Shown here: positions 5,726-59,352 of the stretch, in pieces
How the letters are laid out: each line of letters starts with the position of its first letter
Position numbering within the stretch: the first letter of the stretch is position 1
Assembly: GCA_964586315.1 (NCBI GenBank)
Contig: CAZPHE010000006.1
Span: 1-59,352, forward strand
DNA: 59,352 bases
Source: an uncultured bacterium
GTDB lineage: Bacteria > Fidelibacterota > Marinisomatia > Marinisomatales > UBA1611
Reading direction: 5' to 3'
Program-made: the position numbers and the translations under genes
The notes under the pieces: model-generated
Seen by the model: only the letters and a program-made list of their open reading frames with translations
Database searches by the model: none
What the model was told of the DNA's origin: nothing

Positions 5726-5818
5726 ATATTTTTGTTGAAAAGTAGTCCTTCGTATGATCAGTAGTCTATATTATTTAACAAATAGTAATTTAAATATTTA
5801 AAGATTTTAAAACTTAGA

Positions 5819-8463: not shown

Positions 8464-8661
8464 ATTGATGTCCAATTATTTAAAATAAATTATATAGATT
8501 TTATATATTTTAGTTTTACTTTTCTTCCAAAAATTATATTCTAATGTAACCAATTATAAAAGATTTCTTACTATAAACGATCCTTGGGTCAAGTTAAATT
8601 ACCATTCAAATAATTGTTTATTCAATATTAAATAATTGATTTTTGAAATAGATTTAGTCTA

Positions 8662-9938: not shown

Positions 9939-9943
9939 TTTAT

Positions 9944-12278: not shown

Positions 12279-12279
12279 T

Positions 12280-12978: not shown

Positions 12979-13068
12979 GAGGATATATAAATTTTTCAAG
13001 ATCTTTTCTTCATTATGAATTTATTACAATAAAAGGTAATATTGCCGGCTTATTGAGAGTTTAATCCC

Positions 13069-13716: not shown

Positions 13717-13737
13717 AAACATGAGGAACATCGAAGT

Positions 13738-15681
13738 ATGTTTGAAAAACAGAATGAAGAAAATGTAGTTGAAGAGGTTTTAGATAAATATGAAACAGAT
13801 AATGATGAAAAAAAAACCAGCGTTGAAGATGCGCCTGCTACTGAAAATGTTACAGAATTAACAGATTATTTAAATCCTGATCTTTTTAAGGATATTAAAG
13901 TTTTAAATAATGATGAACTTTTAGAAGAACAATCTGATGAGAAAATAAGTGGTGAACTTGAAAAGTTATATTCAAGTACTTTTGCAGATATATCAGAAAA
14001 CACCTTGATAGAGGGTCGTGTAGTAGGAATGAATGAAAAAGATGTATTGATAGATATTGGATTTAAATCTGAAGGAATAATAGATAGAAATGAATTTAAT
14101 GAAAAGGAATTGCCAAAGATTGGTGATCAAGTTGAAGTATATCTGGAGTTTATTGAAGATGCTAGTGGAAATACAATTCTTTCAAAAGAAAAAGCAGATT
14201 TTATGCGCCGCTGGAAGGAATTGAATGATGCTTTTGATAATGAAAAAATAATTAAGGGAACAATTGTTCGTCGAATCAAAGGTGGCCTAATTGTAGATTT
14301 GGGTGTTGTCCAAGCATTTTTACCCGGTTCCCAAGTTGATGTACGACCCATCCAGGACTTTGATATTTATTTAGAAAAAGAAATTGAACTTCGAATTGTA
14401 AAATTTAATGAAGCTCGAAAGAATATTGTTGTATCGCATAAAATTATCCTAGAAGATAGTCTTAAAGAACAGAGAGAAGCATTATTTAAAGAACTTGAAG
14501 TTGGCTCAATAATGGAAGGTAGAGTTAAAAATATTACAGATTTTGGTGTTTTTGTAGATCTAGGTGGTATAGATGGATTATTGCATATTACAGATCTTTC
14601 ATGGGGAAGAGTCAATCATCCTTCTGAATTACTAGAACTTAATGATGCAATTACTGTTAAAGTCATAGAATATGATGAAGAAAGAAAAAGAGTATCTTTA
14701 GGTCTAAAACAACTTAGTCCTCATCCATGGGAAGATGTTGAGATAAAATTTCCTATAGGTAATGTAGTTAAAGGAAAAGTTGTAAGTCTTACAAATTATG
14801 GTTGTTTTATTGAATTGGAACCGGGTATTGAAGGATTAATTCATCATTCAGAAATTTCATGGACAAAACATATAAAAAACCCATCAGAAGTATATTCTAT
14901 GGGTGATGAAGTAGATGCTAAGGTACTATCAATTGATATTGATGAAAGGAAAATAAGTTTAGGAGTGAAACAACTTACACCAGACCCATGGGTAGAAATT
15001 GAAGAAAAGTACATGGTTGGTACAGTGCATAAAGTAATGGTAAAAAACTTAACTCAATTTGGAGCTTTTGCAGAGTTAGAAGAGGAGATCGATGGATTAA
15101 TACATGTTTCAGATATGTCTTGGACTAAAGTTGTGAAACACCCTAAAGAAATAGTTGAAAAAGGTCAAGAAATTGAAGTGAGGATATTAGAAATTTCCAA
15201 GGAAAACAGGAGAATTTCTTTAGGCTATCGTCAAGTAAAAGATGATCCGTGGCCTGAATTAGTGAACTATTTTGATGTTGGAAAAGAAGTCAGTGGTGAA
15301 ATAATCCGTATACTTGATAAAGGTATTATTATCAAATTGGAACATGAAGTAGAAGGTATAATTCCTTTTGGTAAAATGTCAAAAAAAGATAGAAAATCTC
15401 TCGCAAATCAATATGAAGTCGGAGCAAATTTATCTGGTATTGTAATGAAAGTTTCTCCAGAAGATAAAAAAGTAATTCTGTATAAGGAAGAACTTGCGGG
15501 GATAGCGAAAAGAACATCTGCGAATGATGAGGTTAAACAATATCTTAATAATCAAAATACTGATTCAGGAGCAAAACTAGAATTGCCACAAGAATTATTA
15601 GATTTAGCTAGTCAGGCAGAGAAAGAAACTGTAGATGATGCATCCGAAAAAAAAGACTCTAAACCTAAAAAAGAGACCTAA
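13738..15681 (+). CDS. rpsA: 30S ribosomal protein S1
   Basis: Six S1 repeats (VKNITDFGVFVDLGGIDGLLH etc.); downstream of cmk; SD GAGGA. Confidence 0.98.
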   Translation: MFEKQNEENVVEEVLDKYETDNDEKKTSVEDAPATENVTELTDYLNPDLFKDIKVLNNDELLEEQSDEKISGELEKLYSSTFADISENTLIEGRVVGMNEKDVLIDIGFKSEGIIDRNEFNEKELPKIGDQVEVYLEFIEDASGNTILSKEKADFMRRWKELNDAFDNEKIIKGTIVRRIKGGLIVDLGVVQAFLPGSQVDVRPIQDFDIYLEKEIELRIVKFNEARKNIVVSHKIILEDSLKEQREALFKELEVGSIMEGRVKNITDFGVFVDLGGIDGLLHITDLSWGRVNHPSELLELNDAITVKVIEYDEERKRVSLGLKQLSPHPWEDVEIKFPIGNVVKGKVVSLTNYGCFIELEPGIEGLIHHSEISWTKHIKNPSEVYSMGDEVDAKVLSIDIDERKISLGVKQLTPDPWVEIEEKYMVGTVHKVMVKNLTQFGAFAELEEEIDGLIHVSDMSWTKVVKHPKEIVEKGQEIEVRILEISKENRRISLGYRQVKDDPWPELVNYFDVGKEVSGEIIRILDKGIIIKLEHEVEGIIPFGKMSKKDRKSLANQYEVGANLSGIVMKVSPEDKKVILYKEELAGIAKRTSANDEVKQYLNNQNTDSGAKLELPQELLDLASQAEKETVDDASEKKDSKPKKET

Positions 15682-15708
15682 TTTCTTGGCAAGGAGTGTA
15701 TCCATTCC

Positions 15709-44010: not shown

Positions 44011-44154
44011 CTAAAAAATTAGATGCAAGTAAGATTCACAACCAATTGGTTTATCAATAAAAAGAGATAACTTTTTTTGTGAAGTTTAATTTGGTCTCAA
44101 AAATATCACTAAGTAAATTTGTGGTCTATTTTACGCCTCGTTTAATAAAATATT

Positions 44155-44571
44155 ATGTATAGAGATTTTGGAACCGTTTTACTTGCAGCCATGTTGGCCA
44201 TAGTGTTTGTTTGTGTACCATTAATTCTCCAATGGTTAGTTGCTCCATCTAATAAGACTGCTGAAAAACTACAAACGTATGAGTGCGGGGAAGTAGTTGA
44301 TGGTTCTGCTTGGTTACAGTTTAATATAAGGTTTTATGTAATAGCTCTTATCTTTCTTATCTTTGATGTTGAAGTAGTTTTTCTTTTTCCTTGGGCTGTT
44401 GTTTTCAAGCAAATGGGTCTTGTTGCTCTAATAGAGATGGGTATCTTTTTGTCAATTCTAATAATTGGGTTAGCCTACGTGTGGGTCAAGTCTGATCTTG
44501 ATTGGGTTAAAAGAAAAGTTCGTTATGGAACGGGTAGGTATCAAAATATTGCATTAAAACAGGGGAAATAA
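44155..44571 (+). CDS. nuoA: NADH-quinone oxidoreductase subunit A
   Basis: [26 protein letters not shown]; about 15-aa C-terminal extension. Confidence 0.97.
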
Positions 44572-45063
44572 ATGGGTTTATTGACAAATAAGTTCCAAGA
44601 TAATATAATAGTAGAAAAATTAGATAAGTTACTTAGCTGGAGCCGTTCAACAAGTCCTTGGTTTTTTCAATTTGGGACTGCTTGTTGCGCAATAGAAATG
44701 ATGGCTGCAGCTGCTAGTAGGCATGATTTAATGAGGATTGGAGCGATACCACGTTCCTCCCCAAGACAAGCGGATGTTATGATTGTTGCCGGAACAGTAA
44801 CAATGAAAATGGCGATCCGTGTAAAAAAACTATATGAACAAATGGCAGATCCTAAATATGTAATTTCTATGGGATCTTGTGCAAATAGTGGAGGACCATA
44901 TTGGCAACATGGTTATCATGTTTTAAAAGGCGTTGATCTTGTAATCCCCGTTGATGTGTATGTACCTGGATGTCCTCCGAGACCTGAATCGTTAATTGAA
45001 GGTCTACTAAAGTTGCAGGAACAAATATCCAATGAACGACCTCTTACAAGAAAAATGGTATGA
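44572..45063 (+). CDS. nuoB: NADH-quinone oxidoreductase subunit B
   Basis: [34 protein letters not shown]. Confidence 0.98.
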
Positions 45064-45782
45064 TAGAAGACAGAGAAAAAATTATAGCTGAATTAGTTAA
45101 CAAAGGTCTTGATGGAGACATGGATGCAGTTAACTCTCATGAAGATAGGATGATTCGTGCTAAAGTCAAGGCGATGATTATGAAAGTTAAGAGAGGTAAT
45201 GTTGAGCGCCCTCCTATACCTATCCCATCTTCGCCAATATCTTCTAGTGAGCCGACTGTAGAGGAAAATATTGTTGTGGAAGAATTAGATGTTAAAGATG
45301 CTTATCAAAAAGTTATAAAATTATTACAAGAAAAATTTCCTAAAGCAATTGTTGAAAATAATAAAAATAAATTTATTCAGATTAATCCTGAAGAATGGTT
45401 TGATATAGCTGTTTATCTTAAATCAGAAGAATCTTTATTGTTTGACTCTTTGCAATGTCAAACGGGTATGGATTTGGGCGAAGATATTTTAGAATCACGG
45501 TATAATTTACATTCTATGGAACATGATCATTATATTGAGATAAGAATTTCTGTTTCAAGATCAAATCCACAAATTCCTTCTGTAGAACAGATTTGGAGAA
45601 TAGCCGATTGGTTTGAGAGAGAAACTTATGATATGTTTGGCATAGAGTATACTGGTCACAGAGATTTAAGACGGATTTTACTTCCAGATGATTGGGAGGG
45701 ATGGCCATTGAGAAAAGACTATCAAGAACAAGAGACTTATCATGGTATAATGGTTCCAAAAATGAAGGAAGGATGGGAGTAG
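45060..45782 (+). CDS. nuoC: NADH-quinone oxidoreductase subunit C with N-terminal extension
   Basis: [17 protein letters not shown]...[23 protein letters not shown]. Confidence 0.95.
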
Positions 45783-46894
45783 TCCACGGCGAAGAGATGG
45801 TCCTAAATATTGGACCGCAACATCCTGCTACGCATGGTGTGCTACGTTTGCAAGTGAGAACGGATGGTGAAGTTGTATCTCAAATCACACCGTATATGGG
45901 GTACTTACATCGATGCTTTGAGAAACATTGTGAGAATGTAACATATGAGCAGGTAATCCCATTCACAGATCGTTGTGATTATTTATCATCTATGTCTATG
46001 AATTTTGGATATGTAGTTGCAATGGAAAGACTAATGGATATCAAGGTCAATGATAGAGTTGAACATATCAGAGTGGTTATGGCGGAATTGCAGAGAATTG
46101 CTAGTCATCTACTTTGCACAGGAGTTTTTGGATTAGATTTAGGTGCTTTTACACCATTTCTATGGGCTCTAAGAGATAGGGAGAGAATCCTAGATTTATT
46201 TGAGTTAACATGCGGAGCTCGTTTGTTGTATAATTATATGTGGGTAGGGGGTCTTAGCCATGATATACCAGTGGGATTTGTGGAGTCAACTTTTGAATTC
46301 TTGGATTATTTTGAACCAAAAGTTGATGAATTAGAAAATATATTAGCACATAACAGTATATTGATAGAACGTTCTGCTGATATAGGTGTATTACCGAAAA
46401 ATGTTGCCATAAGTTATGGTGTAACAGGTCCAAACTTAAGAGCATCAGGAGTTCATTGGGATTTAAGAAAAAATGATCCATATTCTATTTATGATAAATT
46501 TGATTTTGATGTTCCCATTGGTCAAGGATTAAAAGGATCTATAGGAGATTGCTGGGATAGGTTTTATGTGCGAATAATAGAAATTAGAGAAAGTATTAAA
46601 ATTATAAGACAAGCGCTAGCGGCTATGCCAAAAGATGGAGATGTTCATCAATCTTTGCCTAAAAAGTTGCGTCCACCAAAGGGTTCTATCTATGCAAGGA
46701 CGGAGACACCTCGAGGTGATTTAGGTTATTATATTGAGAGCGATGGCTCTCCGATACCCTATCGTTTAAAAATGAGGTCACCAGCGTTTACTGCTTTGTC
46801 GGTAATAGATGAGATAGGCTCTGGATGGTTGCTTTCAGATGTCCTTGCTATTTTAGGGAGTCTAGATATTGTTTTAGGAGAGATTGATAGATGA
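45773..46894 (+). CDS. nuoD: NADH-quinone oxidoreductase subunit D
   Basis: LNIGPQHPATHGVLRL, GYLHRCFEK, RCDY, LGSLDIVLGEIDR. Start placed at ATG 45773 (10-nt overlap with nuoC) rather than 45692. Confidence 0.96.
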   Translation: MGVVHGEEMVLNIGPQHPATHGVLRLQVRTDGEVVSQITPYMGYLHRCFEKHCENVTYEQVIPFTDRCDYLSSMSMNFGYVVAMERLMDIKVNDRVEHIRVVMAELQRIASHLLCTGVFGLDLGAFTPFLWALRDRERILDLFELTCGARLLYNYMWVGGLSHDIPVGFVESTFEFLDYFEPKVDELENILAHNSILIERSADIGVLPKNVAISYGVTGPNLRASGVHWDLRKNDPYSIYDKFDFDVPIGQGLKGSIGDCWDRFYVRIIEIRESIKIIRQALAAMPKDGDVHQSLPKKLRPPKGSIYARTETPRGDLGYYIESDGSPIPYRLKMRSPAFTALSVIDEIGSGWLLSDVLAILGSLDIVLGEIDR

Positions 46895-47964
46895 CAGTCG
46901 ACTACATTTATGAAATGTTAAATGGATTGTTCCCTAATTTTTCTGGGAATGAAACTTTTCTTATTATTGCTATGTTGCTTCCTTTTTTTGCATTATTTGG
47001 CTTTATCACGATTTATGGTTTCGGTGTGATATATGCTGAATTAAAAGTATCATCATTCATTCAAGATAAAACTGGTCCTATGGGGCAGGGGTATGGTTTT
47101 CATGCTGGAAAGTGGGGGGTATTGCAGCCTGTTGCAGATGGATTACATCTTTTTTTTAAGGAAGATATCATACCTGCTACTGCAGATAAACCACTTTTTA
47201 TTTTAGCGCCTTTTTTAATATTTATAGGCATGTTTGTGGGCATTATTGCAATACCGTTTGGTGAGGAAATTATAATTGCGGATATGAATATTGGTATTTT
47301 TTATATTCTTGGTGTTGGTAGTGTAGCTGTGATCGCGCTGATATTGGCTGGCTGGTCTTCAAACAATAAGTGGGCTTTGTATGGAGGTATGAGATCAGCT
47401 GCTCAAATAATCAGTTATGAAATCCCTGCAGGTATTTCACTTATCACTATAATTATGCTAGCTAGCTCTCTGAGTATGCAAGAGATTATTGCATATCAAA
47501 ATGGAGGCCTTTTCAATTGGATTATTTTTGATAATCCATTTATGCCCATAGCTTTTATAATCTTTTTCATTAGTGCTCTTGCTGAGACAAACAGAACACC
47601 TTTTGATCTCCCAGAGTCAGAGTCAGAGCTAGTTGCCGGCTTTGTAACAGAGTATTCAGGAGCTCGTTATGCGTTTTTTTTCTTAAGTGAGTATGTAAAT
47701 ATGTTTGTTATAAGCTCTGTAGCTACAACAGCTTTTTTAGGAGGGTGGCAGAGTCCATTCCCAAATTTATTAAATACACCTGGTTGGAGTGTATTTTGGA
47801 TGATAAGTAAATCTTTTTTTTTAGTATTCCTAATGATTTGGGTACGTTGGACAGTGCCTAGGTTACGTGTAGATCAACTAATGCATTTGTGTTGGAAAGT
47901 ATTCATCCCAATCGGTCTATTGAATATTTTTGGTGTCGCAATTTGGACAGTTTTGAGAGGTTAA
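46891..47964 (+). CDS. nuoH: NADH-quinone oxidoreductase subunit H
   Basis: QPVADG, AETNRTPFDLPESESELVAGFVTEYSG, PRLRVDQLM. Confidence 0.98.
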   Translation: MTVDYIYEMLNGLFPNFSGNETFLIIAMLLPFFALFGFITIYGFGVIYAELKVSSFIQDKTGPMGQGYGFHAGKWGVLQPVADGLHLFFKEDIIPATADKPLFILAPFLIFIGMFVGIIAIPFGEEIIIADMNIGIFYILGVGSVAVIALILAGWSSNNKWALYGGMRSAAQIISYEIPAGISLITIIMLASSLSMQEIIAYQNGGLFNWIIFDNPFMPIAFIIFFISALAETNRTPFDLPESESELVAGFVTEYSGARYAFFFLSEYVNMFVISSVATTAFLGGWQSPFPNLLNTPGWSVFWMISKSFFLVFLMIWVRWTVPRLRVDQLMHLCWKVFIPIGLLNIFGVAIWTVLRG

Positions 47965-47968
47965 TTAA

Positions 47969-48550
47969 ATGGTCAAATATTTATCAGACATAATCAATTC
48001 GATATCCGCAATTCTTGGAGGAATGTTCTTAACTATCAATCATTTTTTTCGCGCTAGGACTGGTATTGCGACCTTGCAATATCCTGAAGAGAGATGGCCC
48101 CGTCCTGAAAGAAATATTGGTTTTGACCATGGAAACTATAATGTTATTAGATCTAGGCTACATGTAGATATTGATGATTGCATTGGTTGTTTGAAATGCG
48201 AGAGGGCATGTCCTGTTGATTGTATTAAAATTGAAACTGAAAAGTCACCAATTAGAGGAGAGGACATTAAAGATATCAAACATACTGGAATCACATCCAA
48301 AAGCACTAAAAAAGCATTAGTAGTTACAAGATTTGATATTGATATGTCAGAGTGCTGTTATTGTAATCTATGTACTTATCCATGTCCAGAGGAATGTATT
48401 TTTATGACAGGCGGACCTAATGAAAGTAAACATTCTATCGACTATGAATTTTCAGAGCCTGATCGCACTGATTTAATCTATCATTTTTCTAAACCTGGTA
48501 CAAAAGAGGGGTTAGAGGATATGTTAAAAAAACAGGAGGTTAAATCATAG
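47969..48550 (+). CDS. nuoI: NADH-quinone oxidoreductase subunit I
   Basis: TLQYPEE; two 4Fe-4S motifs CIGCLKCERACP and CCYCNLCTYPCP. Confidence 0.95.
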   Translation: MVKYLSDIINSISAILGGMFLTINHFFRARTGIATLQYPEERWPRPERNIGFDHGNYNVIRSRLHVDIDDCIGCLKCERACPVDCIKIETEKSPIRGEDIKDIKHTGITSKSTKKALVVTRFDIDMSECCYCNLCTYPCPEECIFMTGGPNESKHSIDYEFSEPDRTDLIYHFSKPGTKEGLEDMLKKQEVKS

Positions 48551-48552
48551 CT

Positions 48553-49047
48553 ATGCCTATTGCTGAAATAGTCTTTTGGTCTTTAGCCGGTTTTACTATT
48601 CTTTCTGCAGCATTGGTTGTCTTAAATAATCAATTACTTTATTCTGCTATAGCTTTACTTTTTTCTCTTTTTGGTGTAGCTGGTCTTTATATTTTTTTAT
48701 GGGCTGATTTTATTGCAGGTGTACAGCTTCTTGTATACATTGGTGGTATTAACGTATTGATTATCTTTGGTATAATGCTTACAAATAAAATTTCTTCTGT
48801 TCGTTTATCCCAAACAAATATGCAGCAGGGCGTTGGTGGTGTAGTTTCTATATGGCTTTTTATTTTTATATCTTTTGTAATTGCGAAAACAACATGGTAT
48901 AAAACATCTGCTATTGAGCCTACTGAAACTGTTAGCACAATAGGAACCCTTTTACTTACAAAATACCTGCTATCTTTTGAAGCTGTCTCTCTACTGTTAT
49001 TGGGTGCATTAATTGGTGCAGCATTACTATCTAGGGAGACAAATTAA
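48553..49047 (+). CDS. nuoJ: NADH-quinone oxidoreductase subunit J
   Basis: ADFIAGVQLLVYIGGINVLIIFGIML, FEAVSLLLLGALIGA. Confidence 0.96.
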   Translation: MPIAEIVFWSLAGFTILSAALVVLNNQLLYSAIALLFSLFGVAGLYIFLWADFIAGVQLLVYIGGINVLIIFGIMLTNKISSVRLSQTNMQQGVGGVVSIWLFIFISFVIAKTTWYKTSAIEPTETVSTIGTLLLTKYLLSFEAVSLLLLGALIGAALLSRETN

Positions 49048-49352
49048 TGGATCAACTAAATAACTACCTATTTATTTCAGCTGTTTTATTTTCTCTTGGT
49101 ATCTTTGGTGTAATGACTCGAAGAAATGGGATAGCTGTATTAATGGGTGTAGAATTGATTCTTAATGCTGCTAATTTAAATTTTGTGGCATTTTCCAGAT
49201 TTGGTGGAATGAATTTAGATGGTCATATTTTTGCACTATTTGTTATTGTTTTAGCAGCAGCTGAAGCTGCAGTTGCTTTAGCAATTGTTATAAATATTTA
49301 TAACAATCTGAATACTATAAGTGTTGATGATGCTTCATCTATGAAAGAATAA
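49047..49352 (+). CDS. nuoK: NADH-quinone oxidoreductase subunit K
   Basis: GVELILNAANLN, AAAEAAVALAI. Confidence 0.97.
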   Translation: MDQLNNYLFISAVLFSLGIFGVMTRRNGIAVLMGVELILNAANLNFVAFSRFGGMNLDGHIFALFVIVLAAAEAAVALAIVINIYNNLNTISVDDASSMKE

Positions 49353-51400
49353 TGGAAAATATGTTTATTAATTATTCTATTTTTATCCTTTTCCTTCCTT
49401 TTTTTGCATTTCTTATTATGATATTCTTTGGTAAGAGATTACCGAGGCAGGGAGACTGGTTGTCGATAGGTGCAATTTTAACAACTCTAATATTTGCAGC
49501 GATTATGTTTGTTTCTATGATACTTGAATATGATCCAGATTTTAAGCACGAAGCTTCATTCACTTGGTTTGATATGGGTGCATTCAACATCCAGTTAGGG
49601 TTCCTTATTGATAATATCACCATTATTATGCTTTTGGTTGTAGCACTTATTTCAACATGTACCCATATATTCTCAACACAGTATCTCAAAGGTGATATCC
49701 GATACACTCGTTATTTTGCTTACTTGGGTCTATTTACATTTTCTATGAATGGGATAGTGTTAGCAAACAATTTAATCTCAATGTATATGTTTTGGGAGTT
49801 AGTTGGAGTAAGCTCATATTTATTAATTGGTCACTGGTTCGAAAAAGATTCTGCTGCGAATGCCAGTAAAAAAGCATTCCTGACAAATAGGGTAGGTGAT
49901 ATTGGATTTTTTATAGGGATAATGCTTATTTATAATGCAGTTGGTTCTTTTGCTTTTAATGATATTTTTAATGGTGTTTCTTCGCAAATGATCACTGGTA
50001 CGACCTTAACATTAGCCGGTGTAGGTTTGTTTTTAGGTGCAATGGGAAAGTCTTCACAGTTTCCTCTACATATCTGGTTGCCTGATGCTATGGAAGGTCC
50101 TACTCCCGTCTCTGCACTTATGCATGCAGCAACAATGGTAGCTGCTGGTGTATATTTATGTGTTCGGATTTTTCCTATATTAACTCCAGATGCTTTGTTA
50201 GTGGTTGCTTATGTAGGTGGTTTTACAGCTTTGTTTGCAGCAACTATTGCAATAACCCAGACAGATATTAAAAAAGTATTAGCCTATTCTACTGTGAGTC
50301 AGCTAGGATACATGATTCTAGCTGTAGGAACTGGGGTCTATACAGCCGCATTTTTTCATTTGCTTACCCATGCAATGTTCAAAGCGAATTTATTTTATGG
50401 ATCAGGTTCTGTAATTCATTCAATGCATCATGCACTCCATGAAAAACATGATCATGAGACTGATCCTCAAGATATGAGAAACATGGGAGGTTTTAGGGGA
50501 AAAATGCCAATTACCCATTGGTCAATGCTTATTAGTACAATGGCGATAGCGGGTGTTCCACTCTTTTCAGGATTTCTTTCTAAGGATGCAATTTTGGCTG
50601 GAACATTATCATTTGCTAACCATAATCCTGTTCATATACTGTTACCAGTATTTGGATTTGGCGCAGCTATGATTACTGCATTCTATATGTTTAGGATGAT
50701 GTTTATGACTTTTTATGGTAAACCACAGATGCCTGAAATATTTGATGATATACACGAGTCACCTAAAGAAATGACTGGTCCAATTGTTTTACTTGGAACA
50801 CTTAGTATTTTTATATGGTATACATTTCCATATTTTAATCCAATATCAAGTCATGGTTGGTTCACCGACTTAGTTTTGCCACAAGATGCTTCAGTCCCAG
50901 GAAATTTAACGGCAGAATATATTTCAGATGGGGCTCATCATGCACATCATTTGGCGATGTACATTTCTATTGCTGTGGCATCAATTGGAATTTTATTATC
51001 ATGGATTTTTTATATAAAAAAGATTTTTTCTGCTAAAGCTGTAGCAAACCGTATTGGAATTTTGTATGACTGGAGTTTGAACAAATATTATTTTGATGAA
51101 AATTATGATAAATATATTTATCAACCCACTTTACGATTAGCAAATAAAATTTCATGGATAGATTGGGAGCTTTATGATAGATATTTTATTAATGGATTTG
51201 GTAGATTGACAAACTGGGCAAGCCGCATTACAGGGGAATTTGATTATAATGGAATAGATCAAACAATGGTTGATGGGACTGGCTGGATAGCAAATGGAGC
51301 TGGCCGTTTATTAAAGACCCTTCAAACAGGTAAACTCCAAAATTATGTACTGTTTGTTGCTGCAGGAGTCATCATACTCATGATAATCCAATCATTTTAA
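49352..51400 (+). CDS. nuoL: NADH-quinone oxidoreductase subunit L
   Basis: WELVGVSSYLLIGHW, KAFLTNRVGD, WLPDAMEGPTPVSALMHAATMV, LAYSTVSQLG. Confidence 0.98.
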   Translation: MENMFINYSIFILFLPFFAFLIMIFFGKRLPRQGDWLSIGAILTTLIFAAIMFVSMILEYDPDFKHEASFTWFDMGAFNIQLGFLIDNITIIMLLVVALISTCTHIFSTQYLKGDIRYTRYFAYLGLFTFSMNGIVLANNLISMYMFWELVGVSSYLLIGHWFEKDSAANASKKAFLTNRVGDIGFFIGIMLIYNAVGSFAFNDIFNGVSSQMITGTTLTLAGVGLFLGAMGKSSQFPLHIWLPDAMEGPTPVSALMHAATMVAAGVYLCVRIFPILTPDALLVVAYVGGFTALFAATIAITQTDIKKVLAYSTVSQLGYMILAVGTGVYTAAFFHLLTHAMFKANLFYGSGSVIHSMHHALHEKHDHETDPQDMRNMGGFRGKMPITHWSMLISTMAIAGVPLFSGFLSKDAILAGTLSFANHNPVHILLPVFGFGAAMITAFYMFRMMFMTFYGKPQMPEIFDDIHESPKEMTGPIVLLGTLSIFIWYTFPYFNPISSHGWFTDLVLPQDASVPGNLTAEYISDGAHHAHHLAMYISIAVASIGILLSWIFYIKKIFSAKAVANRIGILYDWSLNKYYFDENYDKYIYQPTLRLANKISWIDWELYDRYFINGFGRLTNWASRITGEFDYNGIDQTMVDGTGWIANGAGRLLKTLQTGKLQNYVLFVAAGVIILMIIQSF

Positions 51401-51425
51401 CATAAAAGTTTGAGTAGAGGAAAAG

Positions 51426-52973
51426 ATGGAATATAATATTCTAAGTTGGCTAATCTGGTTGCCTATCATTGGGATGGTAGCCATTGCATTTATACCGAGG
51501 GATAATGAGAATTTAATTAAAAACGTATCTGCGGTTACAACAGGAGTCCAATTTATATTGACATTGGTTCTATGGAATAAATTTGATTCCAATATTGGTG
51601 CAATACAATTTAAGGAAAAGTATAATTGGATTCCTTCGTTTAATATAGAATATTTTCTTGGAGTAGATGGTTTAAGCTTGCCCATGGTGATCCTAACTGG
51701 GCTATTATTTTTCATAGGTGTCTTTGTTAGTTGGAATACCAAAAAAGCAGTAAAGGGATACTTTGCACTTTTTCTTCTTTTGGATACTGGTGTAATGGGT
51801 GTTTTTCTTTCTTTAGATTTTTTCCTTTTTTACATTTTCTGGGAAGTTATGTTGCTGCCAATGTATTTCTTGATAGGCATGTGGGGAGGCCCTCAAAGAG
51901 AATATGCTGCGATCAAGTTTTTTCTCTATACCTTATTTGGGTCAGTTCTCATGTTGGTAGGAATATTAGGCCTTTATTTTTCATGCGGGCAAACTTTTAA
52001 TATTTTAGAACTCACTAGTGTAGCAACCGGTGCACTTAGTGGACTTTTATGGTGGGGCATGAGTGCTATCAAAGTTATTTGGGTTCTTCTCTTCATTGGA
52101 TTTGCTATTAAGGTACCCGTTTTTCCATTTCATACTTGGCTCCCCCTTGCACATGTAGAGGCTCCCACTGCTATTTCAGTTCTTCTTGCAGGTATTTTAC
52201 TAAAGCTGGGAGTCTATGGAATTTTGAGAGTTAATTATGGTTTAATGCCTGATGGAGTTTACTGGTTCTCATATGCATTAGCACTTCTTGGGCTTATCAA
52301 TGTAATCTGGGGTGGACTCTGCGCGTTAGCACAAACAGATTTAAAAAAGCTTGTAGCATATTCAAGTGTTAATCATATGGGATATTCACTAATAGGGATG
52401 GCAGCAGTAGTTGCCGCAGGAGAGGCACATGGACTGAATATGAAAGCTGCTCAGGCAGGTCTTGGTGGAGCAGTTTTTCAAATGTTTAACCATGGAACAA
52501 TTTCTGCTATGTTATTTATTTTAGTAGGTGTGATTTATGAACGAGCTCACCATAGAGAAATTGAAGGTTTTGGTGGTCTTGCAAGTCAGATGCCTATCTA
52601 TACAGGCATTACTGCAGTTGCTTTTTTTGCTGGACTTGGTCTCCCCGGGTTATCTGGGTTTATTAGTGAAGCAATGTGTTTTATTGGTGCCTTTCCCGTT
52701 TATAAGGGAATTGTAATCGCCTCAACAATTGGTATTCTATTAAATGCCGCTTATTTTTTATGGGCATTCCAAAGAATTTTCTTTGGTGAGATTAATGAAA
52801 AATATTCTGACTTACCTGAGATAAACCGTCTTGAACTATTTACTGTTATACCGCTACTTATTATTACTCTTTTCTTTGGTATCTATCCCTCACCCTATAT
52901 TGATACCATTTCCAGTACGATGGATGTTATAATTAACCATGTAGTATCGCTTGCTACAAATGCAAGTATGTAA
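51426..52973 (+). CDS. nuoM: NADH-quinone oxidoreductase subunit M
   Basis: FWEVMLLPMY, KVPVFPFHTWLP.AHVEAP, LGLPGLSGFISE. Confidence 0.98.
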   Translation: MEYNILSWLIWLPIIGMVAIAFIPRDNENLIKNVSAVTTGVQFILTLVLWNKFDSNIGAIQFKEKYNWIPSFNIEYFLGVDGLSLPMVILTGLLFFIGVFVSWNTKKAVKGYFALFLLLDTGVMGVFLSLDFFLFYIFWEVMLLPMYFLIGMWGGPQREYAAIKFFLYTLFGSVLMLVGILGLYFSCGQTFNILELTSVATGALSGLLWWGMSAIKVIWVLLFIGFAIKVPVFPFHTWLPLAHVEAPTAISVLLAGILLKLGVYGILRVNYGLMPDGVYWFSYALALLGLINVIWGGLCALAQTDLKKLVAYSSVNHMGYSLIGMAAVVAAGEAHGLNMKAAQAGLGGAVFQMFNHGTISAMLFILVGVIYERAHHREIEGFGGLASQMPIYTGITAVAFFAGLGLPGLSGFISEAMCFIGAFPVYKGIVIASTIGILLNAAYFLWAFQRIFFGEINEKYSDLPEINRLELFTVIPLLIITLFFGIYPSPYIDTISSTMDVIINHVVSLATNASM

Positions 52974-52982
52974 TCAATTTAA

Positions 52983-54476
52983 ATGAATAATTTTCAAAGT
53001 CTATCTTATTACTACCCTGAACTCATCTTAACAGGAGTCATAATAATATCAGTAATATATGATTTACTGATTGATAAATCTAAATCTGGAAGAGTTGGTT
53101 GGGTATTAGTATGTGGCTTAATTCTAGTTGCAATATCTATCCATTTACAAGATGAATTTCCCGTAACAACTTTGTTTACAGATGCAGTTGTCTTAGATCC
53201 TTTTTCAACATTTTTTAAAATCATAGTTCTTTTGGCAACTATTCTTGTATCAATAGTAAGCCTTTATTCTGGTGAATTAGATGGTTATAGAAAGGGTGAA
53301 TATTTTTCTTTATTGGGTATTATTTCATTTGGACTTTTTCTAATGGTGTCAGCAATTGATTTAATAATGGTTTATCTTTCCATAGAAATTGTATCAATAA
53401 TGTCTTTTATTCTTGCAGGGTACCTGAAGCAAAACGCAAGGTCTAATGAGGCAGCTCTAAAATATGTTGTATATGGTGCTTTTTCTTCCGGAATAATGCT
53501 ATTTGGTTTAAGCTATGTCTTTGGTTTAACTGGAAGCACTAATTTTTTTCAAATCCAGCAGTCTCTATCTACTTTAGAGAGCGAATCAAATACTGCAGTT
53601 ATGATGGCAATGATTATGATTCTTGCAGGATTTGGTTATAAAATTTCAGCTGTGCCTTTCCATTTTTGGACTCCAGATGTTTATGAAGGCGCTCCGACAA
53701 CCATTACTGCATATTTATCTGTAGCACCTAAAGCAGGAGCATTTGCCATGATGCTTAGATTCTTTAATCAGGTTTTTGCAGATGGTGGTGCAATGGCAGG
53801 CTTAGATGCTTCATCTTTTTCTGAATTTCCATGGGCAAATATTTTGAGTTTATTAGCCATTATTACCATGACACTAGGTAATGTCGTGGCTATACAGCAG
53901 AATAGTATTAAGCGTATGCTTGCCTATTCCAGTATTGCTCATGCTGGATATATGTTGCTTGCTATGCCGGTCATGTCTGGAGATAGTATTTATGCTATAA
54001 TGATTTATCTTGTAATGTACCTTTTTATGAATTTGGGTGCATTTTTTGTTGTGATAATTGTAAAAAACAAGACTGGAAGTGAATCCTTTGATGATTACAA
54101 GGGTCTAGGTTGGGAGATGCCTCTAATCGGTGTTGTAATGACCTTGTTTATGGTTTCTCTTACAGGTCTACCTCCGACTGCAGGTTTTATCGGAAAATTT
54201 TATATTTTTGCTTCCTTAATTAAAGGTGGAAGTACTTTTTACTGGCTTGTTGTTATTGGTGGTATTAATAGTGTTATATCTCTTTACTATTATTTAAGAG
54301 TAGTAAAAGTGATGTATTTTGAAGGGGAAAAAAAAGAATCTATTCTTTATCCTCCAAGAGTATTAACCGGAATGCTACTTGCCACAGCAATTCCCACTCT
54401 TTTACTAGGAATTTACTGGACTCCTATTGCAGACTGGATTAAAAGCTCACTAATATTTTTTATTCAAACTATATAA
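52983..54476 (+). CDS. nuoN: NADH-quinone oxidoreductase subunit N
   Basis: EAALKY, YKISAVPFHFWTPDVYEGAP, KRMLAYSSIAHAGY, GLPPTAGF.GK. Confidence 0.98.
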   Translation: MNNFQSLSYYYPELILTGVIIISVIYDLLIDKSKSGRVGWVLVCGLILVAISIHLQDEFPVTTLFTDAVVLDPFSTFFKIIVLLATILVSIVSLYSGELDGYRKGEYFSLLGIISFGLFLMVSAIDLIMVYLSIEIVSIMSFILAGYLKQNARSNEAALKYVVYGAFSSGIMLFGLSYVFGLTGSTNFFQIQQSLSTLESESNTAVMMAMIMILAGFGYKISAVPFHFWTPDVYEGAPTTITAYLSVAPKAGAFAMMLRFFNQVFADGGAMAGLDASSFSEFPWANILSLLAIITMTLGNVVAIQQNSIKRMLAYSSIAHAGYMLLAMPVMSGDSIYAIMIYLVMYLFMNLGAFFVVIIVKNKTGSESFDDYKGLGWEMPLIGVVMTLFMVSLTGLPPTAGFIGKFYIFASLIKGGSTFYWLVVIGGINSVISLYYYLRVVKVMYFEGEKKESILYPPRVLTGMLLATAIPTLLLGIYWTPIADWIKSSLIFFIQTI

Positions 54477-54498
54477 TTAAAAAAATAAATATATAATT

Positions 54499-55830
54499 TT
54501 GAAAAATATTGTCATTAAAAAAGGACATGATATAAGAATGTCAGGTTTGCCATTGAGTAGTTCGGTTTCAAATTTAGTGACATCGAGTGTCTCTCTGATG
54601 CCTAACCAGTTCAGAGGTGTTAAGCCAAAATTAATGGTTTCAGAAGGTGAAAAGGTAAAGATTGGGCAACCTCTTTTTTTTGATAAGATAAAACCAGATG
54701 TGAAATGGGCATCACCAGCAAATGGATCTGTAAAAAAAATCGAATTTGGATCCCGAAGAGTAATAGAAAAAATTGAAATTGCAGTAGAAGGTCAAGAAAC
54801 AGTAAGGCATAACTTACTTTCAAAAGAACAGATAAAATCATCTAAAAAAGATTTAGTATTAGATTATATTCTAGAATCTAACCTCTTTCCATTGATCCGC
54901 CAAAGACCATTTAATAAAGTTGCAGACCCTAAAGTAGAACCTAGGGATATTTTTATATCAGGTCACAACACGGCTCCCTTAGCAGTAGATTTTCATGAAA
55001 TTTTGAAAAAAAATAAAGATGCTTTTCAGTTGGGATTGACTGCTCTTAGTAAACTGACCAGGGGTAGAGTATATTTAACCTTGAAGGATTTTATGGAATT
55101 TGAAAATGTTCAAGTTCAAACAATTTCTGGTCCTCATCCAGCGGGAAATGTTGGTATTCAAATACACCATACAAAACCATTAAATCCCAATGAAGTTATA
55201 TGGACTGTGAATGCTCAGCATGTAATTACGCTTGGTAAATTATTTCAAACAGGAGAATATGATCCTTATTTTACTGTATCTATTGGTGGCTCTGGGGCTG
55301 ATAAGCCAGAAGTTGTTAAAACATTAACTGGTTCTAGTATACAATCTATGTTAAAAAATCAATCTAGGGAAAATCCTGTTCGCTTTATTTCAGGCGATGT
55401 TTTGACAGGTGAAAAGGTAAATAAAGATGATTTTATGGGGTTTTATGATTCTACTCTTACTATTGTTGATGATCAAGTAGATAGACCATTTCTTGGGATG
55501 CTTAGTCTAGGGAATAGTAATACGAAATACAGTCTCACAAATACGTTTTTATCATTGTCAAGTTCATTATTTAATTTTACCACATCACAGAATGGTGAAA
55601 AAAGAGCAATGGTTCCAATTAATGCATGGGAAAATGTTTTGCCAATGGATATCTATCCAAATCCACTCTATCGGGCTATCTTAGCTCACGATATAGAAGA
55701 GATGGAAAAACTTGGTATATGGGAATGTGATGATGAAGATTTCGCGTTATGTTCTTTTGCTTGTCCTAGTAAAATAGATGTCGGTAGTGTCATTAGAGAT
55801 GGTCTTGATCTAATGGAATTAGAAGGATAA
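54499..55830 (+). CDS. nqrA: Na(+)-translocating NADH-quinone reductase subunit A
   Basis: VKPKLMVSEGEKVKIGQPLF, GPHPAGNVG, ISGDVLTG, EEDF-like DEDFALCSFACPSK; TTG start. Confidence 0.96.
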   Translation: MKNIVIKKGHDIRMSGLPLSSSVSNLVTSSVSLMPNQFRGVKPKLMVSEGEKVKIGQPLFFDKIKPDVKWASPANGSVKKIEFGSRRVIEKIEIAVEGQETVRHNLLSKEQIKSSKKDLVLDYILESNLFPLIRQRPFNKVADPKVEPRDIFISGHNTAPLAVDFHEILKKNKDAFQLGLTALSKLTRGRVYLTLKDFMEFENVQVQTISGPHPAGNVGIQIHHTKPLNPNEVIWTVNAQHVITLGKLFQTGEYDPYFTVSIGGSGADKPEVVKTLTGSSIQSMLKNQSRENPVRFISGDVLTGEKVNKDDFMGFYDSTLTIVDDQVDRPFLGMLSLGNSNTKYSLTNTFLSLSSSLFNFTTSQNGEKRAMVPINAWENVLPMDIYPNPLYRAILAHDIEEMEKLGIWECDDEDFALCSFACPSKIDVGSVIRDGLDLMELEG

Positions 55831-55832
55831 CC

Positions 55833-57017
55833 ATGAAATGGATTAGAAACTTACTAGATCAAGTTGAACCCCAATTTGCAAAAGGTGGGAAGTTAGAGAA
55901 ATTTGCACCTGTTTACGAAGCAACGGATACAATTCTTTTTAGTACAGATGAAAGAACTAATACGGGTCCGCATATAAGAGACAGTGTTGATATAAAACGT
56001 GTTATGATACTTGTTGTAATAGCGTTAATACCTTGCTATATCTTTGGTACAATTAATGTTGGATACCAAAAAGCTTTAATATTTGGTGACCAGACAACAT
56101 GGCTGGATAATCTATTGGCTGGTGCTATTGCAATTCTTCCAATTATTGCAGTCACGTTCATGTCTGGTGCTTTTTGGGAATTACTATTTGGCATTGTAAG
56201 AGGACATCCTATATCCGAAGGATTCCTTGTGACGTGTGCATTAATACCTCTTACATTACCACCATCAATTCCACTATGGCAGGTTGCTGTTGCTACTTCA
56301 TTTGGTATTGTTATTGGTAAGGAAATATTTGGCGGTGTGGGAATGAATATATTTAACCCAGCACTTATGGCTAGGGCATTTCTTTATTTTACATATCCAG
56401 CTAATATATCAGGAGATAAAGTATGGGCACTAGCACCGGATGGCTATTCTAGCCCAACAGCACTTAGTATACCTGCTGGTAAAATTAATGCTAATGCTGT
56501 TGATCTACTCGATAAGGCTAGTTCTAGTCTCGTTTTTGATTTTTCCTGGATAAATATGTTCATGGGATGGATTCCAGGTTCTATTGGTGAGACAAATAAA
56601 TGGATAATAATGATAGGGGCATTTTTCCTCATTGTTGTTGGTATAACAAGCTGGAGAGTAATGGTTGGTTCTTTAATAGGATTATTTGCTATGAGCTATT
56701 TGACAAATATTTTAGCTCCATACTCCACAAATGCAATGCTAACTATTCCTCCGCATTATCACCTTGTTATGGGTGGTTTTATGTTTGGGACAGTTTTTAT
56801 GGCAACTGAACCAGTTACAGGTGCTCACACTGATATAGGAAGATGGATTTTTGGAATTTTGGTTGGGTCCTTGACTGTAATTATTCGTAGTGTCAATCCA
56901 GCATATCCCGAAGGAATTATGTTGGCAATACTCCTTATGAATGCATTTGCACCATTAATTGATTATTTTGTAGTTCAGAGAAATATAAAAAAGAGAATGC
57001 TGCGATATGTACAGTAA
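55833..57017 (+). CDS. nqrB: Na(+)-NQR subunit B
   Basis: HIRDSVDIKRVM, ISEGFLVT, GKEIFGG.G.NIFNPAL, GSIGET, AYPEGIMLAIL. Confidence 0.97.
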   Translation: MKWIRNLLDQVEPQFAKGGKLEKFAPVYEATDTILFSTDERTNTGPHIRDSVDIKRVMILVVIALIPCYIFGTINVGYQKALIFGDQTTWLDNLLAGAIAILPIIAVTFMSGAFWELLFGIVRGHPISEGFLVTCALIPLTLPPSIPLWQVAVATSFGIVIGKEIFGGVGMNIFNPALMARAFLYFTYPANISGDKVWALAPDGYSSPTALSIPAGKINANAVDLLDKASSSLVFDFSWINMFMGWIPGSIGETNKWIIMIGAFFLIVVGITSWRVMVGSLIGLFAMSYLTNILAPYSTNAMLTIPPHYHLVMGGFMFGTVFMATEPVTGAHTDIGRWIFGILVGSLTVIIRSVNPAYPEGIMLAILLMNAFAPLIDYFVVQRNIKKRMLRYVQ

Positions 57018-57702
57018 TTCATATACGATAATTTTTATGGCGGTTATTACGATCCTTCTTGGTTCATTTTTATCTATTGCTGCGGGACAATTAGAAGATA
57101 TACAGGAATTAAATGTAGAGAATGATAGTAAAAAAAATATATTATCTTGCCTAGGTTATAAAGAGAGTCAAGATAAACCTTGGACTTCAAATGATATAAA
57201 AAAAATATTTGAGAATAATATTGATGCTTATGTTTTGAATTCAAAAGGCAATCGAACAGATAAAGACCCAAAGTTAGTTGATCCTGAAACTGATAATGAA
57301 AATTATCCCATATATGTAGATAAAAATGATGGGAAAATTAAAGGATATGCAATTCCAATATCTGGAAAAGGATTATGGTCAACTCTTTATGGATACTTTG
57401 CCATTGAACCTGATGGAATTACTGCCAAAGGGATAACATTTTATGCACATAAAGAGACACCTGGTTTAGGAGGAGAAGTAGATAAGCAATGGTTTCAAAA
57501 GAATTTTGTTGGTAAAAGATTTATTAATGATGATGGTGAATTAGTTGGTATTAAAGTTATAAAAGGCAAAGCTGATCCAAATAGTCGATATGAGGTTGAT
57601 GGTATTTCAGGTGCAACCATCACAAGTAAAGGATTAGAAAATTTTTTAATTGATGATCTAAAAAAATATGAACCATTTTTTAATAATATCAGAAAAGGAT
57701 AA
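57007..57702 (+). CDS. nqrC: Na(+)-NQR subunit C
   Basis: [32 protein letters not shown] (FMN attachment site). Confidence 0.97.
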
Positions 57703-57707
57703 GACCC

Positions 57708-58334
57708 ATGGTTGTTTTTGAAAAAAAGTCAAAACAAGCACTGACTGATCCTCTTATGAAAAATAATCCTATCAGTCTACAAGTATTAGGAATTTGTTCT
57801 GCTCTCGCTGTGACCGTACAGCTAAATACCGCTGTTGTTATGACACTGGCGGTAGTGTCTGTTTTATCCATTTCCAATACTGTTATTTCTCTATTAAGAA
57901 CTATGATTCCCGGAAAGGTAAGAATTATTGTTCAGCTTTCTGTGATTGCAACATTAGTGATTACTACTGATCAGATTTTACAGGCTTATTTGTATGATAT
58001 AAGCAAACAATTATCAGTTTTTGTGTCCCTAATAATTACCAATTGTATAGTAATGGGAAGAGCAGAAGCATTTGCCATGCAAAATACACCAGGTAAATCT
58101 TTTCTTGATGGTTTGGGTAACGGACTTGGATATGGTGGTATTTTGATATCAGTAGCTTTTTTCAGAGAATTATTAGGAAATGGATCGGTTTATGGTTATC
58201 AGGTTATACCAGATTTTATTTATGATGCTGGTTATCAAAATATGGGACTTATGGTTCTTTCGCCGGGTGCATTTATTATACTTGGACTCATAGTTTGGGC
58301 TCATCGTATCGCAAGTGGTATAGAAGAGGATTAA
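57708..58334 (+). CDS. nqrD: Na(+)-NQR subunit D
   Basis: [34 protein letters not shown]. Confidence 0.97.
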
Positions 58335-58338
58335 TTTT

Positions 58339-58968
58339 ATGGAACACTATATCAGTATATTAACAAAAGCTATCTTTATTGAGAATATTCTGCTCGCTTA
58401 TTTTTTAGGAATGTGTTCATTCTTGGCAATATCAAAAAAGGTAGATACATCTATTGGACTTGGCTTTGCGGTAATTTTTGTATTGACAATTACAACTCAA
58501 GCAAATTGGGCTATTCATAATTTTTTACTAAAAAATGGTGCACTTTCATGGTTGAATTCTGATTACGGTGTGAATGGCAGTAATGCTATTGACCTTAGTT
58601 TTTTAAATAGTATTATATTTATCGCAGTCATTGCTGCTATGGTTCAATTGGTGGAAATGACACTAGATCGATTTGTTCCTAAATTATATATCAGTTTGGG
58701 AATATTCTTGCCATTAATAGCAGTTAATTGTGCTATCCTTGGTGGTTCAATGTTTCTAGTTGAGAGAGAATACACTTTCATGGAGTCCACTGTTTATGGG
58801 TTTGGGTCAGGTATCGGGTTTTTCTTAGCAATTACATCTATGGCGGCTATAAGACACAGAATAAGATATTCCAATGTACCCATCCAATTAAGAGGTATTG
58901 GTATTACAATGTTATTAACAGGGTTAGTTTCAATGGCATTCATGGCTTTTTCAGGAATTGACTTATAG
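58339..58968 (+). CDS. nqrE: Na(+)-NQR subunit E
   Basis: [33 protein letters not shown]. Confidence 0.97.
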
Positions 58969-59352
58969 TGGAACAAATCTTTCTTAGTATAGCAGTTTTC
59001 ACTGGTGTAGTATTATTTTTAGTTCTTCTTCTAAATTTTGCAGAAAGCCAATTGCTACCCCAAGGTGATGTGACGATAAATATTAATGGACAAGATGATA
59101 AAAGCATAATCACTCGTCCGGGTGGTACTCTCCTTACTGCCCTAGCTGGAAAGTCTGTTTTTTTACCATCTGCATGTGGAGGAGGAGGAACATGTGCAAT
59201 GTGTGAATGTCAGGTTTTAGAAGGAGGTGGGGATATATTACCCACAGAGACAGGACACATTAGCCGTAATAAAGCCAAGGATAATTGGCGATTAGCTTGC
59301 CAAGTTAAAATCAAACAGGATATGAAAATAAAAGTTCCTGATGAAATTTTTA
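58968..59352 (+). CDS. nqrF: Na(+)-NQR subunit F, 5' part (runs off window; absent from ORF track)
   Basis: GTG start overlapping the nqrE stop; hand translation MEQIFLSIAVFTGVVLFLVLLLNFAESQLLPQGDVTININ...LPSACGGGGTCAMCECQV...RLACQVKIKQDM shows the TM anchor and 2Fe-2S motif. Confidence 0.96.
   Translation, partial: MEQIFLSIAVFTGVVLFLVLLLNFAESQLLPQGDVTININGQDDKSIITRPGGTLLTALAGKSVFLPSACGGGGTCAMCECQVLEGGGDILPTETGHISRNKAKDNWRLACQVKIKQDMKIKVPDEIF

Follow-up and report, generated by a model that had tools for sequence, protein, structure and literature searches.

The closest described systems to the locus reported here are found in Bacteroides fragilis and Prevotella, in which a complex I with the gene set nuoABCDHIJKLMN, lacking the genes nuoEFG for the module that oxidises reduced nicotinamide adenine dinucleotide (NADH), occurs in one cell together with the Na+-translocating NADH:quinone oxidoreductase (Na+-NQR or NQR, nqrABCDEF) (PMC7002350, PMC6560451). 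This 'headless' enzyme does not oxidise NADH, and ferredoxin has been assumed to be its electron donor in both genera (PMC7002350, PMC6560451). For B. fragilis it was reported that headless NUO contributes no NADH oxidation, which is carried by NQR and NDH2, and the donor was written as 'X' (PMC7002350). The two B. fragilis operons are widely separated (BF638R_0850-0841 and BF638R_2136-2141), and RprY binds a promoter that belongs to nqr itself (PMC7002350). In contrast, the stretch of DNA analyzed here, the complete 59,352-nucleotide contig CAZPHE010000006.1 (hereafter the window), carries the genes of both complexes as one co-directional array with a 22-nucleotide spacer between the two gene sets and one conserved promoter-like element, and its host is a marine bacterium rather than a gut anaerobe.

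Both complexes are also known from the lineage of this host. Getz et al. (2018, PMC6143742) described a non-canonical NADH dehydrogenase (NDH) without the NADH module in most Marinimicrobia genomes, the co-occurrence of this headless NDH with NQR, and the replacement of NQR, which is prevalent in epipelagic clades, by canonical NDH in mesopelagic clades. That work dealt with presence and absence only, however, and in searches of its text no reference was found to a fusion of the non-canonical NDH and NQR operons or to a replacement by canonical NDH at the same locus. Cyanobacterial NDH-1 (PDB 6hum and others) is likewise a complex I core without NuoEF that is fed by a small low-potential carrier, but its ferredoxin-docking subunits NdhS, NdhV and NdhO are not encoded in the operon of the window. 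A core without NuoEF and with a small low-potential carrier as donor is also attributed to Campylobacter jejuni (Weerakoon and Olson 2008, cited in PMC6143742); the C. jejuni replacement genes are not in the window's operon, in which nuoD is followed directly by nuoH, and the window's genome encodes no flavodoxin. The Na+-NQR of Vibrio cholerae shares with that of the window the six subunits in the same order, apbE downstream, the flavin mononucleotide (FMN) site of NqrC, the cysteines of NqrD and NqrE and the 2Fe-2S cysteines of NqrF, whereas for the window's nqr genes no separate promoter-like element was found and the NqrB site reads SSPT instead of SGAT.

The window belongs to a 2.52-Mb genome of Marinimicrobia (Candidatus Neomarinimicrobiota, SAR406). 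Gene identities were assigned from the listing of open reading frames (ORFs) and from NCBIfam and Pfam family scans, with curated cut-offs where given. Seventeen ORFs, all on the plus strand and joined by overlaps or gaps of at most 25 nucleotides, encode nuoABCDHIJKLMN and then nqrABCDEF, which bears out the gene calls of a first-pass annotation made from the sequence alone. NuoH, NuoK, NuoL, NuoM, NuoN and NqrA to NqrE each exceeded the curated cut-off of one or more models built for the subunit in question. It is fairly probable, in our judgement, that this array is a conserved transcription unit that co-expresses the headless complex I and an NADH dehydrogenase as separate enzymes between which labour is divided. 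As the window comprises the whole contig, nqrF is cut by the contig end at residue 128. The promoter-like element and the genes of the array are located as follows.

44091..44119, plus strand: promoter-like element TTGGTC-N17-TAAATT, 36 nucleotides before the nuoA ATG
44155..44571, plus strand: nuoA (NF005839, E-value 5.8e-30)
44572..45063, plus strand: nuoB, the cluster N2 subunit (TIGR01957, 227.5 bits against a cut-off of 142.7), with the CC, GSC and CPP cysteine motifs present
45060..45782, plus strand: nuoC (PF00329, matching residues 106-226 only), with an N-terminal extension of ~100 residues without family match
45773..46894, plus strand: nuoD, the quinone-site subunit (NF008974, 488 bits)
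46891..47964, plus strand: nuoH (NF004741, 342 bits against a cut-off of 305)
47969..48550, plus strand: nuoI, with two 4Fe-4S motifs (TIGR01971, E-value 8.9e-19; both CxxCxxCxxxCP motifs)
48553..49047, plus strand: nuoJ (NF005163, E-value 8.5e-34)
49047..49352, plus strand: nuoK (NF004320, 114 bits against a cut-off of 57)
49352..51400, plus strand: nuoL (NF005141, 633 bits against a cut-off of 556)
51426..52973, plus strand: nuoM (TIGR01972, 562 bits against a cut-off of 263.8)
52983..54476, plus strand: nuoN (TIGR01770, 411.7 bits against a cut-off of 332.6), with its stop at 54474-54476
54499..55830, plus strand: nqrA, with a TTG start (NF003761, 487 bits against a cut-off of 450; TIGR01936, 413.9 against 321)
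55833..57017, plus strand: nqrB (NF003756, 507.7 bits against a cut-off of 414)
57007..57702, plus strand: nqrC (TIGR01938, 185.8 bits against a cut-off of 144), with the SGAT FMN site at 57607-57618
57708..58334, plus strand: nqrD (NF006777, 306 bits against a cut-off of 235), with two cysteines
58339..58968, plus strand: nqrE (TIGR01940, 292 bits against a cut-off of 247.55), with two cysteines
58968..59352, plus strand: first 128 codons of nqrF, covering the membrane helix and the 2Fe-2S domain (TIGR01941, E-value 5.8e-44, 150.6 bits, model positions 1-125)

The headless nature of the complex, read earlier from the order of the genes in the window, was upheld when the rest of the genome was searched; this result applies to an assembly that is 95% complete and consists of 158 contigs. 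Searches of the whole genome with NuoF- and NuoE-family models gave no match, and the same searches detected both families in control genomes. Using the canonical NuoE, NuoF and NuoG of a relative as tblastn queries, nothing was found in the genome, and canonical NuoD, NuoH, NuoM and NuoN matched only the copy in the window. The sole match to a NuoG model (contig C29) was rejected as NuoG and represents a molybdoenzyme oxidoreductase of the FdhF/YdeP family. Within the array itself there is no room for nuoEFG, because the stop of nuoD overlaps the start of nuoH (46891-46894).

The first-pass annotation had also proposed that the 17 genes form a single co-regulated unit. With apbE, which lies downstream of nqrF, the unit would have 18 genes, and its existence is supported by the conserved adjacency of the two gene sets, the short gap between them, a promoter-like element found before nuoA only, and RNA from a relative. 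The spacer between nuoN and nqrA (54477-54498, plus strand) is 22 nucleotides long and consists of A and T only: TTAAAAAAATAAATATATAATT. Having no G or C, it forms no hairpin, and no terminator was predicted in it by a terminator scan. At 40 NQR-type loci the homologous spacers measured 7-124 nucleotides with a median of ~20; in most species this length leaves insufficient room for a terminator or for a promoter with a leader. The element at 44091..44119 is a candidate promoter of the whole unit. An element of the form TTGnnn-N16-20-TAAATT was present within 150 nucleotides before nuoA, ~35 nucleotides before the start, at all 21 of 21 loci across the class; within the same distance before nqrA it was found at 0 of 47 loci, and before the other tested genes of the array at 0-2 loci each. 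The loose motif is as common in the AT-rich window as in shuffled sequences (19 copies against 18.5), and the case for a promoter therefore rests on the conserved position. A promoter of the Bacteroidetes type (TTTG-N19-21-TAnnTTTG), one copy of which precedes nuoA, was tried and rejected; the window contains 3 copies where 2.6 are expected, and relatives do not share the copy before nuoA.

Metatranscriptome data spanning the junction, which had been put forward earlier as a check on co-regulation, were found for a relative from Saanich Inlet (L014, 62% NqrA identity). RNA runs searched for the window's own sequence contained none of it. The junction of L014 was found in 19 metatranscriptome runs, and contigs with zero mismatches crossed it in four runs from three studies (positions 5783-12251, 9396-15685, 9396-15656 and 9396-12712). 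In these four runs the RNA depth was similar over nuo and nqr. The RNA contigs stopped 330-356 nucleotides before the start of the locus, near the expected start of nuoA, while the depth fell 4-10-fold right after the nqrF stop, was low over apbE and rose over the next genes. This depth profile points to RNA rather than carried-over DNA. The RNA evidence comes from L014 only and consists of assembled, unstranded contigs, which cannot show transcript ends; a second relative (L005) yielded two short RNA contigs, neither of them at the junction. Co-transcription from nuoA to nqrF is well supported, although not proven, and the 17 genes seem to be transcribed as one message of ~16 kb.

The adjacency of nuoN and nqrA was surveyed across the Marinimicrobia phylum in a sample of 301 genomes, of which 205 contained nqrA and 182 a headless-type NuoN. 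Adjacency in the 71 genomes of the window's order was judged from coordinates, and 46 neighbourhoods were fetched and compared by taxonomic rank. The two genes were adjacent and on the same strand in 70 of the 71 genomes (the exception is G166), at NqrA identities down to ~47%, and the full 17-gene order was present at all 13 loci that were fetched from nine of the order's families other than f3. A separate NqrA search of species-representative genomes resulted in 29 Marinimicrobia loci; nuoN directly precedes nqrA at all ~25 loci with upstream DNA, and these keep the order of the 17 genes down to 54% NqrA identity. The sister orders of the class have the same order with ~0.5 kb between nuoN and nqrA, occupied by a gene for a YciA-like thioesterase, and some loci of family f19 have a gap of 2-3 kb. 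In other classes of the phylum nqr stands alone, and a headless-type NuoN, where present, shared a contig with nqr in none of 23 genomes (three other classes, families f24, f29 and f31). The flanks of the array are also conserved, with a divergent putA-like gene upstream and apbE, CitMHS_2, PduO-like, NrnA-like and IspH genes downstream. The adjacency, for which conservation across Marinimicrobia had been named as a check, is not chance: it is conserved in the window's order, looser in the sister orders and absent in other classes.

These data bear on the possibility that the genes are adjacent without shared transcription, in which case nqr would have its own promoter inside the 3' end of nuoN and the gene order would be inherited without regulatory meaning. 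We consider this unlikely, given the missing conserved element before nqrA, spacers as short as 7 nucleotides, RNA contigs that continue through the junction at similar depth and drop sharply only after nqrF, and an adjacency that persists in the 70 genomes over a wide range of NqrA identity. It draws on the limits of contig-level RNA mentioned above, on the 0.5-3 kb and foreign genes that sister orders tolerate between nuoN and nqrA, and on relatives in which a canonical complex I follows the headless nuoN: in 12 of 21 of these, a promoter-like element overlaps the end of headless nuoN, so that this position can accommodate a promoter. The second, canonical operon seems to have its own promoter, unlike nqr.

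Three further observations were made at the surveyed loci. The acyl-CoA thioesterase of the sister orders is a hotdog-fold protein of 155 amino acids (L043:12017-12484; also in L042, L044, L049 and L070) that matches 4HBT (7.5e-16) and YciA (2e-15). In a single-cell contig (L029, CACLYL010000029.1), nqrB adjoins a nuoN in inverted orientation, apparently as a result of chimera formation during amplification. An nqr operon of the Marinimicrobia type is present in a record filed as 'Winogradskyella sp.' (L030, CAXRJK010000072.1). The genome index assigns the genome of this record to the phylum of the window, and a labelling or binning error in the record is probable.

Genomes of the window's order that lack nqrA showed what else can occupy the position behind headless nuoN. 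They contained a headless-type NuoN (53-76% identical) and, 13-15 kb further on the same contig and strand, a second NuoN (36-41%). At 20 of 21 loci from such genomes, including a member of the window's own family, a canonical nuoA-N operon begins ~50-200 nucleotides after headless nuoN; in L139 this operon was verified by matches to NuoE (167 bits), NuoF (590 bits) and NuoG (462 bits). The canonical-slot loci share their flanks with the NQR-type genomes. Since slot and flanks are the same, what was published as a replacement of NQR by canonical NDH is the exchange of one cassette for another at a single locus. A canonical complex I in the place of NQR implies that the headless complex is paired with "the NADH dehydrogenase" and not with NQR itself and, as canonical complex I is normally a proton pump, that complementary pumping of Na+ and H+ is not the reason for the linkage. 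The co-occurrence of the two complexes is not obligate in either direction. The 11-subunit complex was found without NQR in families f4, f8, f9, f11 and f16, and family f3, which has streamlined genomes of ~1 Mb (L103-L106, corresponding to G325, G372, G480 and G488), keeps NQR and the 2-oxoacid:ferredoxin oxidoreductase KorAB and has no headless NuoN.

In several lineages the canonical operon that replaces NQR contains two extra Mrp-like antiporter subunits and an 84-residue ORF instead of the normal nuoL, and in three lineages the CitMHS_2 gene, which follows apbE in NQR-type genomes, lies between canonical nuoM and nuoN (these observations were made at L139:11233-14754, L140:15866-17224, L141:2736-4112 and L142:16052-17410). 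In one genome (G150, L143:15989-17056) nqrA-F is lost and apbE is kept between headless nuoN and the canonical operon, which looks like a relic of the cassette exchange.

The NQR of the window appears, to judge from its sequence, to be a complete enzyme with the full cofactor chain, and its family membership suggests that it pumps Na+. NqrD and NqrE each have the two cysteines expected for their shared Fe centre, and the 2Fe-2S cysteines of NqrF are present (Cys 70, 76, 79 and 111). Residues 141-410 of NqrF were found on another contig of the genome (C44:16029-16841, minus strand), with 92.6% identity to the NqrF of a relative, and are followed there by apbE, encoding a flavin transferase (C44:14978-16051, minus strand), and by a gene for a CitMHS_2-family transporter. 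The FMN-attachment site of NqrB, DGYSSPTAL (window 56439-56465, residues 203-211), contains SSPT, not SGAT, and keeps the acceptor Thr. In the window's subclade, 12 further loci have SGPT, so that the acceptor Thr is preceded by Pro and not by the Ala that is usually conserved there; the Ala-Thr pair is kept in all other relatives, and most members of the window's order have SGAT.

The first-pass annotation had left a choice between a division of labour, with NADH entering through NQR and a low-potential donor through Nuo, and a physical coupling of the two complexes. In the second case, NQR or its subunit NqrF would dock on the headless complex as the missing input module, or both would form a stable supercomplex, and the gene fusion would reflect co-assembly. 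In favour of this, the two gene sets are closely fused in a conserved manner and covered by RNA to a similar depth, a further NADH-oxidising module is absent from the genome, and NqrF is well known to hold flavin adenine dinucleotide (FAD) and a 2Fe-2S centre, the cysteine ligands of which are present in the window. Nevertheless, canonical complex I takes the slot in relatives that have the headless complex without NQR, while NQR is retained in other classes with no headless complex next to it, and in f3 with none in the genome. Moreover, both complexes are encoded on different contigs in all 23 genomes of the other classes, NQR appears complete with its own cofactor chain, and no extra docking domain was seen in the Nqr subunits in the family scan. 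Physical coupling is in our view highly improbable and the two complexes presumably do not touch, whereas the division of labour gained support from the absence of nuoEFG and the presence of KorAB and ferredoxins.

Both enzymes look functional by sequence, and the subunits of the headless complex retain features of a redox enzyme. Its NuoD is a subunit of complex I and not of an NiFe hydrogenase, as judged from its solved-structure matches (the best being Thermus thermophilus Nqo4, 1.5e-102; cyanobacterial NdhH matched at 5e-96); the match to the large subunit of membrane-bound hydrogenase was far weaker (4.7e-47). The start of nuoD is more likely the ATG at 45773 than the TTG at 45692, where the ORF opens. 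The quinone-site His (QHPATHG; motif QHPxTHG) and Tyr (DY) of NuoD are conserved, and NuoB keeps the cysteine motifs that bind cluster N2 in solved complex I. These residues and the cysteine motifs of NuoI would be needless in a pure antiporter, an idea raised for the headless complex of Prevotella (PMC6560451). Applied to the window, the complex would carry out no redox chemistry and would, as an Mrp-like Na+/H+ converter, turn the Na+ gradient of NQR into a proton gradient. Although NuoL, NuoM and NuoN are homologous to Mrp, no separate Mrp-type genes were found in the genome, and the genes lie beside those of a Na+ pump, relatives without NQR keep the headless complex beside canonical complex I, normally a proton pump itself. 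We regard such a converter as extremely improbable.

Two parts of the headless operon varied among relatives. The N-terminal extension of NuoC (residues 1-105, window 45060-45370), which includes a Pro/Ser-rich linker, is the least conserved stretch of the array, and NuoC is shorter in several families. In the sister orders, a protein of 225-395 amino acids is encoded between nuoI and nuoJ (L043:5372-6118, L046:4879-6066 and L070:5058-6089). It contains three to four repeats of LNxIxDKMxRGxAKKAF with acidic linkers between them, and in L070 it is in frame with the C-terminus of NuoI. An accessory or docking role in the headless complex is conceivable; an assignment as PCP_red-type domain was rejected, as it had no Pfam or NCBIfam support.

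The electron donor of the headless complex is likely to be reduced ferredoxin from KorAB, as far as can be inferred from the gene content of the genome. A KorAB-type 2-oxoacid:ferredoxin oxidoreductase (653 bits) is encoded by korA-korB, followed by a class II fumarase (fumC)-like gene (C25:15765-20020), no E1 subunit of 2-oxoglutarate dehydrogenase was found in the genome, and two small ferredoxins of the 4Fe-4S type are present, one of 101 residues (C3:81129-81434) and one of 108 (C8:37316-37642). The cluster of korAB and the fumC-like gene, together with the missing 2-oxoglutarate dehydrogenase E1, suggests a ferredoxin-linked tricarboxylic acid (TCA) cycle. Flavodoxin was rejected as donor because no flavodoxin domain occurs in the genome. 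KorA was found in 283 of the 301 genomes of the phylum, including f3, which lacks the headless complex, and was therefore rejected as a phylogenetic predictor of this complex; the absence of the complex from f3 also implies that reduced ferredoxin is re-oxidised there in some other way.

The same genes could be arranged into a redox loop, in which the NADH dehydrogenase reduces quinone and the headless complex, operating in reverse and driven by the ion gradient, reduces ferredoxin, so that both together would act as an Rnf-like NADH:ferredoxin oxidoreductase. Complex I is known to be reversible, KorAB is reversible in principle and nearly universal in the phylum, and an NADH:quinone reductase of one type or the other accompanies the headless complex in every case. 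However, without 2-oxoglutarate dehydrogenase KorAB most likely works oxidatively, producing and not consuming reduced ferredoxin, no pathway that consumes ferredoxin was identified in the genome, and f3 manages without the headless complex, and we hold the loop to be very unlikely. A wider version, in which the headless complex works only as half of a two-enzyme unit with the NADH:quinone reductase encoded behind it, either as a supercomplex or as a quinone loop that interconverts NADH and ferredoxin against or for the ion gradient in the manner of a respiratory analogue of Rnf, appears quite unlikely.

The preferred reading, co-expression of two separate enzymes with a division of labour, can be formulated as a mechanism. 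A promoter ~35 nucleotides before nuoA would drive the 11-subunit headless complex I, consisting of the quinone-reducing module (Q-module) and the proton-pumping membrane arm. Transcription would run unbroken, and probably without an internal promoter feeding nqr, into nqrABCDEF, with apbE following at a lower RNA level. The two enzymes would reduce the same quinone pool: NQR would oxidise NADH and export Na+, and the headless complex would oxidise reduced ferredoxin from the KorAB of the TCA cycle and export H+. Encoded in a single operon, the two enzymes through which electrons enter the respiratory chain could in this way be kept at a constant ratio.

Several points weigh against this mechanism. 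The link to ferredoxin is circumstantial, as the presence of KorA does not predict the complex, and no ferredoxin gene was found in or beside the operon. The promoter-like elements of the second operon in 12 of the 21 canonical-slot relatives mean that strict co-transcription is not universal for the slot, and nuoN may contain an internal promoter of a different sequence type. As the RNA contigs are unstranded and come from one relative, they may include carried-over DNA, antisense RNA or overlapping transcripts. Finally, the thioesterase gene of the sister orders shows that the linkage of nuoN and nqrA tolerates passengers.

What is new at this locus looks like an arrangement of known enzymes, not a new enzyme or machine; neither the fusion of the two gene sets nor the one conserved promoter-like element nor a cassette exchange in the same slot was found to be mentioned in the searchable literature. 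Headless complex I is widespread and occurs in Bacteroidota, Chlorobi, Marinimicrobia and others. If the two-enzyme unit considered above were true, it would provide the long-sought function of the 11-subunit complex I in bacteria of the Fibrobacteres-Chlorobi-Bacteroidetes (FCB) group. Marinimicrobia belong to the most abundant groups of bacteria in the ocean interior, and they keep the headless complex I in an array with an NADH dehydrogenase. The switch from NQR to NDH published for surface and deep Marinimicrobia is refined here to a cassette exchange at one locus. As a defined unit open to testing, the array lends itself to metatranscriptomics, complexome profiling and heterologous expression, and the exchange in its second slot is genomic evidence for a balance between the two points at which electrons enter the respiratory chain.

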